The notes under the pieces: generated by a model
What the model saw: only the letters and a program-made list of their open reading frames with translations
Told to the model about the DNA's origin: nothing
Database searches by the model: none
Translations under genes and position numbers: made by a program
Part shown: positions 6,421-8,775 of the stretch, piece by piece
Layout: each line of letters opens with the position of its first letter
How positions within the stretch are numbered: the stretch's first letter is position 1
NCBI GenBank assembly: GCA_964615185.1
Contig: CAZTOS010000031.1
Location: 1-24,434 of the forward strand
Length of the DNA stretch: 24,434 nt
Origin: an uncultured Thermococci archaeon
Lineage (GTDB): Archaea; Methanobacteriota_B; Thermococci; Thermococcales; Thermococcaceae
Direction: 5' to 3'

Positions 6421-7527
6421 TTACTCACTTCCCTGCGGGTTGGAATCATGGGAAGAAACCCCTTTAGCAATATTTCTTGCCGCATTTAAGTCTCTATCTA
6501 ATTGAAAGCCGCATTTTGGGCATTTAAACCATCTTCCCTTGAGTCCTTTCTCTATCAAATATCCACACCTAGAACAAGTTCTTGAAGTGTTTCTTGGATC
6601 AACAAAAACGACAGGAACACCATTTAGTTTAGCCTTATAGACAATTTTATTAATTAAATCCTTATACGCCCATTTGTGAAGCCTTTTTCTATGCCTTTTT
6701 GCATTGTAATGATGCCTGATTCCCTTAAGGTTCTCGATTGCAATTCCATAACGATAATGCTTGGCTAACTCAACAATCTCCTTTGCAATCTTATGGTTTA
6801 TGTAAGACATTTTGTTCTTCTCCTTATGGGAAAATCTCTTAAGAACCCTCCATGCTCCTTTTTTAATCCCCTTGTCTTTGAGAAACTGCAATTTTGCCCT
6901 TCTATATTCAATACTCTTTTTCCATGCAATTGCACTATCATAGAACTTGTTTACCTTTCCATTGGCGTCTGAAACAACGACGATGTGGTTAATTCCAATA
7001 TCAACTCCAAGCCAGCCTTTTGGTTTGTAAGGCTCTGGTTCGGGAACTTCAAAGCTGATTTGGGCATAGTATTTATTGCCAATTCTTGAAATTTGAACTC
7101 TACCATGCTTCATGTTGAGAAACTTTCTAAGCTTTTTTGGAACGTACATAGGCAACCAAACCCTCTCATTGTTAATTAGCGGGACGTTAATGAAATGCCT
7201 GTCAATTTTGACGTCAACGTTCTTGAACGAAATGATATCCGCTGTAAAAGTTGGCTTTTGTCCTCCTGTTCTAAGCCACGCTCTATAAGTTTCAATGGCC
7301 CTGTTCATAGCCTCTTGAACCACGTTGGAATGCAGGTCTTTGAATTGCTTCCTAACTCTTTTATAAGCAAAAGAATGGACATTTTTTCTCGTTGGGTATT
7401 TTCCAAGTTGTTCAATTTCGAAAAGCCAAGTATTAACACATTCTTTGAACCTTTTGATGGTTGCATCTAATAACTCTCTCTTCCCCTTGTTTGGTTGCAT
7501 TAATTTGAAAGTTTGTGTGAGTTTCAT
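6421..7527 (-). CDS. tnpB: RNA-guided endonuclease TnpB (368 aa), catalytic residues intact
   Basis: Ruv[10 protein letters not shown], Ruv[11 protein letters not shown], zinc finger CSRCG..CPKCG, Ruv[14 protein letters not shown]. True start likely MKLTQTFKL (7527); the upstream 47 codons cross the promoter and RNA. Confidence 0.93.
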
Positions 7528-7550
7528 GTCACACACTATATTTACTACTA

Positions 7551-7572
7551 TCATAAAGTTTATAAATTTTAC
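7551..7572. promoter_or_regulatory. Candidate bidirectional promoter shared by tnpB and the right-end RNA
   Basis: Palindromic TTTATAAA at 7559-7566 with A-rich BRE-like flanks on both strands; 31 nt from the tnpB ATG, 28 nt from the first RNA hairpin. Confidence 0.6.
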
Positions 7573-7587
7573 ATTATAGTTAGTATT

Positions 7588-7708
7588 GATGATGCCTAAC
7601 GGCATGTCCGTTGGGAGGAGGGCTCTCTGACCGGGCCGTATGCGGTCTACCGCAACCGAAGTTCCCATGTTGGGAACCCCTGTCCTTCAGGACGGGGAGG
7701 AAGGTCAG
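7588..7708 (+). ncRNA. Compact omegaRNA-like scaffold (~120 nt); predicted guide continues from 7709
   Basis: Hairpins 7595-7615, 7641-7654, 7661-7677, 7678-7697; CTGACC (7627-7632) is complementary to terminal GGTCAG (7703-7708), as in the omegaRNA pseudoknot. 5' end approximate. Confidence 0.72.
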
Positions 7709-8775
7709 TCCAAAATTGCTATAACTCCCTTCCACTTCTTTCCAAAGCATTCACTCGCTATGACTTTCTTTCCAGTCAGCTTTTCCAAAAGCTTAATCCC
7801 ACCATCGCACTTCTTAAACCCTGTTGCTATACCCACAGTAAAGCCTTCAATTTCCTTAATCCCAACTCTCTTCACATTGCTTGGTTCAATCTTCTCTCTA
7901 AACTTCCAGAGTATTCTCCTCGGGTCTAGCAAAAGTTCTCGTTCAATCTCCTCAAGGATATCACTGTATGCCCACTGGAATTCTTCTTCTCTCTTTTCTT
8001 CCTTCCCAAAAAGAGTAAACTTTCCAGTCTGCCATTCTCTGAGGAAATAGCGGGCAGCTTCTTCGATGTCAACCTCCCCTCCCTTTCTAAGTAAACCTTT
8101 CTTTCTGCCAATTGCCTCTAAAATCTGCTCTTCACTTTCAAACTCTTGGATATCATATTTCTCAGTCAAAGCTTCTTTTCTGGTCTCAAGAATACGTTTA
8201 ATAAGCTTTAACGCTGGCTTTACTGGGTCTTCAATCTTGTCCGCTGGAAAGCCTCCCCTAATGACTAGCTCATCAAAATCGTCTATTGGAACGACTCCTG
8301 GCGAATCTATGAGCCAAATTTTCTTGCTTAGCCTTATAAGCTGTTTCCCTTTTGTGTATCCGGGAATTGGGGCAACACCAACAGCATGTTTACCCTTGAG
8401 AACATTAATTATCGTGCTCTTTCCGACATTTGGATAGCCAACTAACGCAACTTTAACTTTTTCTTTTCCTTCATCAAATAGCTCTTTTGCTATCTTTTTG
8501 ATTTCTTTCCTTAGCATCCCTGTTCCCTTTCTCTCTCTTGCACTGATAAAAACCATAGGAACATCGCTTTTTCTCTTATAATCCTCAGCCCACTCTTTAG
8601 GAACTAAATCTGCTTTGTTCATAGCTATGAGCAGTTTTTTCCCGCTTTCCCTCACTAATTTCTCAACCTTTAGATTTCTCGTTCCAATTGGATCTCTTGC
8701 ATCAACTACCTCAATTACAATATCAGCTTCGTCTATTACTTCTCTCACTACCCTCCATGCTTTTCTCTGTTTCAT
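7705..8775 (-). CDS. Circularly permuted GTPase, RbgA/YlqF family
   Basis: EVVDARDP, then NKADL (G4) preceding GYPNVGKS (G1), PGYT (G2) and DSPG (G3). Confidence 0.93.
   Translation of the reverse strand: MKQRKAWRVVREVIDEADIVIEVVDARDPIGTRNLKVEKLVRESGKKLLIAMNKADLVPKEWAEDYKRKSDVPMVFISARERKGTGMLRKEIKKIAKELFDEGKEKVKVALVGYPNVGKSTIINVLKGKHAVGVAPIPGYTKGKQLIRLSKKIWLIDSPGVVPIDDFDELVIRGGFPADKIEDPVKPALKLIKRILETRKEALTEKYDIQEFESEEQILEAIGRKKGLLRKGGEVDIEEAARYFLREWQTGKFTLFGKEEKREEEFQWAYSDILEEIERELLLDPRRILWKFREKIEPSNVKRVGIKEIEGFTVGIATGFKKCDGGIKLLEKLTGKKVIASECFGKKWKGVIAILD

Follow-up and report, generated by a model that had tools for sequence, protein, structure and literature searches.

An IS200/IS605-type element of an uncultured Thermococci archaeon carries the gene of the RNA-guided nuclease TnpB in inverted orientation relative to its own ends, and the sequence of the predicted guide RNA (omegaRNA) lies upstream of this gene on the opposite strand. 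The DNA analysed (GCA_964615185.1, contig CAZTOS010000031.1, positions 1-24,434 of the forward strand; 24,434 nt) is referred to as a whole as the window. The inverted layout is a conserved architectural variant of the TnpB-omegaRNA system and not a chance juxtaposition, because 33 insertion sites share it, none of 39 outgroup loci was scored as inverted, the ratio of nonsynonymous to synonymous substitutions (dN/dS) in tnpB is low, and the RNA shows covariation. A preliminary description of the same DNA had proposed such a divergent arrangement of nuclease and RNA; it is referred to below where the results bear on it. Coordinates of all features are collected in Table 1.

Boundaries of the element and the insertion site

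Empty sites were sought at trm14, the host gene directly behind tnpB, with trm14 loci taken from 30 of the 36 genomes with a match. The insertion was seen in none of the 29 other trm14 loci compared. In four of the six same-genus loci (L028, L029, L030 and L032) the upstream GTPase gene is joined to trm14, and TCAC abuts the sequence that follows position 7708 in the window. Because these four empty sites read TCAC and then the right flank, the element spans 6429-7708 and is inserted 3' of TCAC (6425-6428), with no target duplication. The first base of the element and the first base of the flank are both T; the position of the junction is nevertheless fixed, because other copies end in TCAG or TCAA. 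Terminal inverted repeats are absent, and insertion is 3' of a fixed tetranucleotide, the features by which members of the IS200/IS605 family and its IS1341 group are recognized. The target-adjacent motif (TAM), for which the preliminary description had offered TTAC or TCAC, is thus TCAC, and TTAC is excluded by the same empty sites. Among the full-length rows of the clade (n = 29) the target was TCAC in 24, TTAC in two and uncalled in three, and it was TCAC at 17 of 17 hand-picked mini copies; these counts are somewhat favoured, since the mini copies were chosen by eye with their left ends already in view, and a window of 12 nt was allowed for the target.

On the minus strand TCAC reads GTGA; before the insertion it contained the GTPase stop codon, and it belongs to the ribosome-binding site of trm14. 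The insertion removed this stop codon, a new TGA is given by the right-end motif TCAG (7705-7708, read on the minus strand), and the sole change in the GTPase is its last residue (E to D).

The tnpB gene and the ends of the element

The RuvC and zinc-finger motifs that had been recognized in the tnpB product were confirmed by profile and alignment. The protein scores 176.9 bits against NCBIfam guided_TnpB (cut-off 100) and contains the Pfam domains OrfB_IS605 and Cas12f1-like_TNB. Its RuvC triad D176/E265/D346 is invariant in 41 of 41 aligned homologues, the four zinc-finger cysteines are present, and the predicted structure is confident (mean predicted local distance difference test score, pLDDT, 90.7). 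dN/dS was 0.03-0.10 in nine of 12 pairs of tnpB genes, the remaining three being saturated; the clade is under purifying selection. An annotated member is PF1918 (P0056), at 49% identity, of Pyrococcus furiosus, a species kept in laboratory culture. As had been noted before, a single base (6420) separates the tnpB stop codon from the trm14 ATG (6419).

The right end lies where it had been placed, upstream of tnpB on the plus strand: the hairpin CCCTGTCC-TTCA-GGACGGGG (7678-7697) is followed by AGGAAGGTCAG, which ends at 7708. Among the sequences compared this hairpin is 96% paired, and six of its eight pairs are changed on both sides. In IS608 a 4-nt DNA guide matches the cleavage motif by a pairing rule. 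At the right end of 53 RNAs of the present type guide and motif covary: the combination was GAAC/TCAG in 45, GAAT/TCAA in four, GAAT/TCAG in two and uncalled in two. The left-end DNA guide of the relatives, GAAG, fits TCAC by the same rule. The preliminary description was correct in finding no right end downstream of tnpB, but it overlooked that a decayed left end lies beneath the 3' end of the gene. This end scores only 5.9 bits with the left-end profile, compared with 15-60 bits in most relatives, which also keep the subterminal hairpin. At five loci (L012, L021, L022, L024 and L297) the tnpB frame crosses the entire left end and stops at the TGA within the target motif, outside the element. 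The window copy, with its collapsed left-end hairpin, is probably no longer mobile; neither its protein nor its RNA looks damaged.

Past movement of the lineage is shown by the many different flanks. No match to TnpA was found in 35 clade loci (control: two of 53 outgroup loci); the assembly of the window holds one Y1 TnpA, on contig C16, with its HUH and Tyr residues intact. Gene-less mini copies keep the promoter region and the RNA. One of them, of 207 bp, lies on contig C114 of the same assembly, has a score of 60.4 bits with the HgcC model (see below), and may be a second source of guide in trans. As a separate observation, contigs C13, C16, C32 and others carry at least three IS200/IS605 target families (TTAC, TCAC and TGAC, by eye) with one right-end motif; a single TnpA lies on C16, and many right-end hairpins in the genome are shortened.

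Conservation of the inverted layout

The preliminary description had suggested examining close homologues of TnpB. In all seven homologues at 69-88% identity the RNA and the right end are found upstream of tnpB and divergent from it, and none of them is conventional. Five homologues at about 50% identity share the upstream divergent RNA, and a sixth locus (L025) is a rearranged fragment. In the protein search the homologues form a cluster that reaches down to about 40% identity, after which identity falls to 36% or less. Of the 30 clade loci with more than 200 nt of upstream sequence, 29 have the right-end pattern upstream, and the 30th, L152, matched the RNA model there. After removal of one duplicate (L142, a repeat of L014) and addition of four further loci, there are 33 distinct insertion sites with the inverted layout, window included, each with a different flank and with TnpBs 39-88% identical to the window protein. 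The clade records come from Thermococci, Methanophagales, Methanosarcinales, Archaeoglobaceae, Methanococci, Undinarchaeota, Micrarchaeota and two bacterial bins. Among viral contigs there was no match to the RNA pattern, and no clade member was among the 80 loci retained (top full-length identity 30%).

Orientation was also scored with profiles of the left and right ends, which had been built solely from 13 gene-less copies. In 25 clade loci, 24 were inverted and none conventional; in 39 outgroup loci, none was inverted, 11 were conventional and 28 unclear. By eye, most of 26 outgroup loci have the same left-end motif upstream and the right-end hairpin downstream. A quick tree, built from 91 proteins, places 32 of the 33 inverted ones on one branch with a Shimodaira-Hasegawa-like approximate likelihood ratio (SH-aLRT) of 93, and L059, which has a long branch, is unplaced.

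The divergent RNA and the HgcC family

The region 7585-7712 matches the Rfam family HgcC (RF00062) with E = 2.4e-8 and 48.2 bits, slightly below the gathering score of 50. Relative to the Rfam family, the RNA of the window has an additional 5' hairpin and a shorter middle. Higher scores were obtained in the relatives: among 17 clade loci, 14 have a divergent RNA with an HgcC score above 50 (maximum 129 bits; two are lower and one is not listed), and it is 74-129 bits in the subclade at 39-50% identity (12 loci). The best five HgcC matches in 61 related genomes adjoin inverted tnpB genes; those ranked sixth to twelfth are mini copies or unclassed. The subtype of the RNA tracks the subclade of the protein.

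A scan of a genome collection with the RNA gave 37 matches. Nine of these accompany a full inverted tnpB and three lie at the 3' end of conventional tnpB genes in Desulfurococcaceae; for the remaining 25 there was no tnpB match in the available flank, nine of them having a left end directly upstream and three being chance-like. The occurrence of the pattern at the 3' end of the three conventional genes indicates that the RNA is of the omegaRNA kind. Separately, six HgcC-type RNAs that lack both tnpB and the usual left end (L299, L312 and L330 from Methanococci; L308, L315 and L325) are preceded by other conserved stretches and possibly represent other types of mini element. Two tandem right ends, 74 nt apart, were noted upstream of tnpB in L146, where the first guide would enter a partial copy of the RNA.

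Region 7585-7712 is predicted to fold with z = -2.65, and three of 200 shuffled sequences were as stable. Four hairpins precede the right-end hairpin, not three as previously described. The pseudoknot CTGACC/GGTCAG that had been pointed out is complementary and is 99.4% paired over 27 sequences, with two columns altered on both sides: C-G has become U-A in four related copies and A-U in one. Among ten close RNAs, ten of 37 pairs show double-sided changes, including pairs of P1 and P2, both of which lie outside the DNA end hairpin. In the second RNA subtype (13 sequences) P2 and the pseudoknot are fully paired. In reading these figures it should be considered that the structures were drawn from the same sequences, that kin share changes, and that shuffle counts are not probabilities. 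A box C/D-like reading of the UGAUGA at the 5' end was rejected, as the stretch is absent from several subclades.

The palindromic TATA that had been reported between RNA and gene, TTTATAAA at 7559-7566, is its own reverse complement; its distance is 31 nt to the ATG of tnpB and 22 nt to the inferred start of the RNA. A TATA-like octamer 22-31 nt from the ATG is present in most of 27 clade loci, often identical on both strands (counted without a null control). The region is a candidate for a single shared promoter that would fire both ways, although AT-rich spacers readily give such overlaps. A scan for bacterial sigma-70 promoters and terminators was set aside as unsuited to archaea.

Table 1. 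Features of the inverted element and adjoining host genes (positions in the window)
Feature	Position	Strand	Remarks
Whole IS200/IS605-type (IS1341-like) element, non-autonomous	6429..7708	+	1,280 bp; from comparison with empty sites
tnpB, 368 aa, pointing to the left end	6421..7527	-	frame overruns the element by 8 nt
Left end, decayed	6429..6463	+	flanking motifs kept, core of subterminal hairpin deleted; under the last tnpB codons
Right end	7674..7708	+	DNA guide GAAC 7674-7677, hairpin, cleavage motif TCAG 7705-7708
Target motif (TAM) TCAC, outside the element	6425..6428	+	from empty sites; GTGA on the minus strand
Candidate bidirectional promoter	7552..7573	.	from sequence; symmetric TATA TTTATAAA (7559-7566) with purine-rich stretches resembling the transcription factor B recognition element (BRE) on both sides
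Predicted omegaRNA scaffold, HgcC type	7588..7708	+	5' end inferred from TATA spacing
Scaffold hairpins (predicted)	P1 7595-7615, P2 7621-7637, P3 7641-7654, P4 7661-7677, right-end hairpin 7678-7697	+	
Pseudoknot CTGACC with GGTCAG (predicted)	7627-7632 with 7703-7708	+	loop of P2 pairs with the last six bases
Predicted guide (host flank)	7709..7728	+	antisense to 3' end of GTPase gene; start fixed by empty sites
Host YlqF/RbgA-like GTPase gene	7705..8775	-	upstream in host operon; profile matches and empty-site comparison
Host trm14 (tRNA G6 methyltransferase gene)	5322..6419	-	downstream in host operon, directly behind tnpB; Trm14_Thcoccales 718.8 bits

Proposed mechanism and alternative explanations

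We consider it likely, with a probability of about 0.85, that a separately transcribed omegaRNA from the right end guides the inverted TnpB to the empty site with the TAM TCAC. The start of the guide at 7709, as previously proposed, is fixed by the empty sites; the preliminary description had overlooked that this stretch runs antisense to the 3' end of the GTPase gene, whose stop codon falls within the right end. TCAC followed by the 20 nt of the predicted guide has an exact match in the empty allele L029. The assembly of the window contains no such site, even when only 12 nt are required and one mismatch is allowed. Given the structure of the empty site, only an RNA of the right end can yield a guide that adjoins a fixed TAM.

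In this mechanism tnpB would have been flipped relative to the ends of the element once, in an archaeal lineage. The TATA region between the two units would drive the tnpB mRNA leftward and, in the other direction, a separate omegaRNA of about 120 nt that runs to and past the right end. The omegaRNA would take its guide from the flank as usual, and its 5' end would come from transcription initiation, not from cutting of the tnpB mRNA. As in other IS200/IS605 elements (10.1101/2023.03.14.532601), TnpA acting in trans would excise the element and rejoin the empty site; the TnpB-RNA complex would then cut TCAC and its flank at this site, and repair from an occupied copy of the chromosome would restore the element. 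The occupied site would be spared, because its junction reads TCAG and not TCAC. Transcription, use of a shared promoter, formation of the ribonucleoprotein, cleavage and homing are what we infer from the established biology of TnpB.

Several points weigh against this reading. The linkage of RNA and protein on one element is no proof that they bind. The compensatory changes in the pseudoknot are probably only two events, in a structure derived from those same sequences. The window copy itself has a collapsed left end and one extra base before its right-end motif. Other inverted lineages may hide among the 28 of 39 outgroup loci that the profiles left unclear, and the quick tree neither shows nor rejects the monophyly of all 33 inverted proteins, a single origin being consistent with it.

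It is improbable, in our judgement, that the RNA serves conventional TnpBs in trans, or acts only as a DNA end, while the inverted TnpB uses another RNA or has another role. The assembly does hold pieces of distant TnpBs (nine further tblastn matches, 25-36% identity) and many right ends with the same terminal motif, gene-less copies of the RNA are common, and the left-end hairpin, in reverse, forms the end of the tnpB mRNA and might offer an alternative scaffold. However, the conventional elements of this genome have different left ends and motifs (TTAC and TGAC, by eye) and score 17-31 bits with the model of the divergent RNA, compared with 126-151 bits for the ten training RNAs. The correspondence of RNA subtype and protein subclade and the invariant RuvC triad also speak against it, and an RNA from the left end would lack a fixed TAM at the empty site. 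A mainly regulatory RNA, which would adjust tnpB or the host gene upstream by antisense action or by competition and leave the nuclease role secondary, seems to us less probable still. In its favour, the RNA overlaps the end of the host gene in antisense with its 3' part, tnpB could face competition from a divergent transcript that starts at a shared TATA, and antisense transcripts are common at the transposase genes of T. kodakarensis according to the accessible part of PMC4247193. Such a regulator would have no common target, because the flank differs at every site, and conservation is confined to the scaffold and its pseudoknot with the terminal motif, a feature of the omegaRNAs described in the accessible part of PMC12558985.

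The juxtaposition by chance of a decayed tnpB and an unrelated right-end remnant, which the preliminary description had named as one outcome that would overturn its proposal, is refuted and has a negligible probability. Right-end remnants are frequent in the genome and the left end of the window copy is decayed, but the comparison with the empty sites shows one clean insertion, layout and spacing are equal at 33 independent sites, the end profiles agree with this orientation, and tnpB is under purifying selection.

Beyond the mechanism, the inversion might be an adaptation: the element would be a non-polar operon cassette with a freely transcribed guide RNA, and HgcC would be its omegaRNA. We regard this as possible but rather doubtful. 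Because TCAC reads GTGA on the other strand, surviving copies would sit at the joints of stop codon and Shine-Dalgarno sequence in archaeal operons. The right end would hand the upstream gene a new TGA, and the left end together with the target would rebuild a GGAG-GTGA ribosome site, which fits the archaeal consensus. The flipped tnpB would run with the operon, so that its promoter would feed the downstream gene. The uncoupling of nuclease and RNA would parallel the step to guides resembling trans-activating CRISPR RNA (tracrRNA), in a branch whose closest solved structures are Cas12f. Among 43 copies with a called target, 21 (11 of 26 full and 10 of 17 mini copies) have, no more than 10 nt from the target and on the strand of tnpB, the start of an open reading frame (ORF) of 90 or more codons; the genome background for such starts, obtained with a stricter counting rule, is 736 of 13,792 GTGA sites (5.3%). 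In eight of 30 copies an ORF of this size terminates at the right-end TGA. Nevertheless, purging of insertions inside genes explains the pattern equally well, and mini copies show it too.

Other features of the window

A second gene-less mini element of the IS200/IS605 type, belonging to a conventional family, lies at 4497-~4885 on the minus strand between a fumarylacetoacetate-hydrolase-like ORF (judged from its translation) and a small membrane protein. Its left-end guide is CAAG, its target is TGAC-like by eye, and its right end overlaps the stop codon of the ORF at 3817-4500. Between trpS and an AAA ATPase gene, two perfectly inverted arms of about 24 bp enclose an AT-rich spacer (2505-2599); this repeat overlaps the start of the latter and yields spurious Rfam microRNA matches. 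This AAA_14/DUF4143 ATPase (2595-3751, plus strand) is in two frames (2595-2858 and 2963-3751) and apparently frameshifted. The frame of a CobQ/CbiA-like gene (14-~855, plus strand) seemingly shifts near its 3' end, and a short stretch that follows at ~965-1060 may, in our reading, be a transposase remnant. At 11402-14776 (plus strand), a Type II/IV secretion ATPase in a pilus-like cluster with DUF515 contains a LAGLIDADG intein of the KlbA type, which starts with Ala.

Comparison with known systems

In the literature searched, no description was found of a tnpB gene inverted relative to its ends with a divergent guide RNA; ISfinder, patents and most subscription papers lay outside this search. 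The accessible parts of PMC3124441, PMC12558985, PMC13565253, PMC13639567 and 10.64898/2026.09.24.754181 describe no such layout. In the survey of PMC10691335, as far as its accessible text goes, the omegaRNA lies downstream of tnpB, and the accessible text of PMC10278001 has it processed from the tnpB mRNA. The divergent RNA described here cannot be cut from that mRNA, and the canonical layout was rejected for the present locus: tnpB points to the left end, which lies at its 3' end, and the RNA is divergent and upstream. The usual assumption that the guide RNA of TnpB lies at the 3' end of the gene does not hold here, and for this entire archaeal clade a pipeline that searches only downstream would retrieve the wrong end of the element. 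Since the RNA would need no processing of the mRNA, the system would allow one to ask whether coupling of RNA biogenesis to the mRNA is important for TnpB.

In other respects the system resembles TnpB of the ISDra2 type and IS1341 elements. The protein is a RuvC/zinc-finger TnpB (Foldseek match to 8h1j, E 1e-16), the RNA would end at the right end with a guide from the flank and a pseudoknot to the terminal motif, and the TAM is the insertion motif. Absence of target duplication, TnpA in trans and gene-less PATE copies are likewise shared with the elements treated in the accessible part of 10.1101/2023.03.14.532601. A TnpB of the IS607 family was rejected, as NF038280 gives 77.5 bits against a cut-off of 350 and the element has hairpin-type ends and a tetranucleotide target (a serine recombinase was not searched for).

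HgcC has earlier been tied to the right-end tetraloop of IS1341 elements (PMC4615843, accessible part), and an HgcC of P. furiosus was described as antisense to a transposase gene (PMC4247193, accessible part, citing Klein 2002). Both sources, in these parts, leave the function open and predate RNA-guided TnpB. The archaeal sotRNAs differ from the present RNA in that they overlap their genes in sense. The present reading would give a testable function to HgcC, an RNA family that was found in 2002 and whose function is still open in the literature examined. It would also supply compact candidate nucleases of about 370 aa with a scaffold of about 120 nt, mostly from thermophilic archaea and with a predicted TAM of TCAC.

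The best sequence and fold matches among solved structures are to Cas12f (9nzq, E 1e-41; 8j12, E 1e-22), ahead of ISDra2 TnpB. Cas12f uses an RNA that is made apart from its mRNA. The window protein differs in that identity is only about 20% and the ends of an element are present. No CRISPR array was found in the window or in 35 clade loci; with this, and with NCBIfam Cas12f2 at 150 bits against a cut-off of 450, an identity as Cas12f (type V-F) was rejected. With the IscB-omegaRNA system the element shares the position of the RNA upstream of the nuclease gene. However, the RNA of IscB is on the same strand as the gene, carries its guide at the 5' end and depends on outside transcription (10.1101/2023.03.14.532601, accessible part), whereas the RNA of the window is divergent, with a predicted guide at its 3' end and a candidate promoter within the element.

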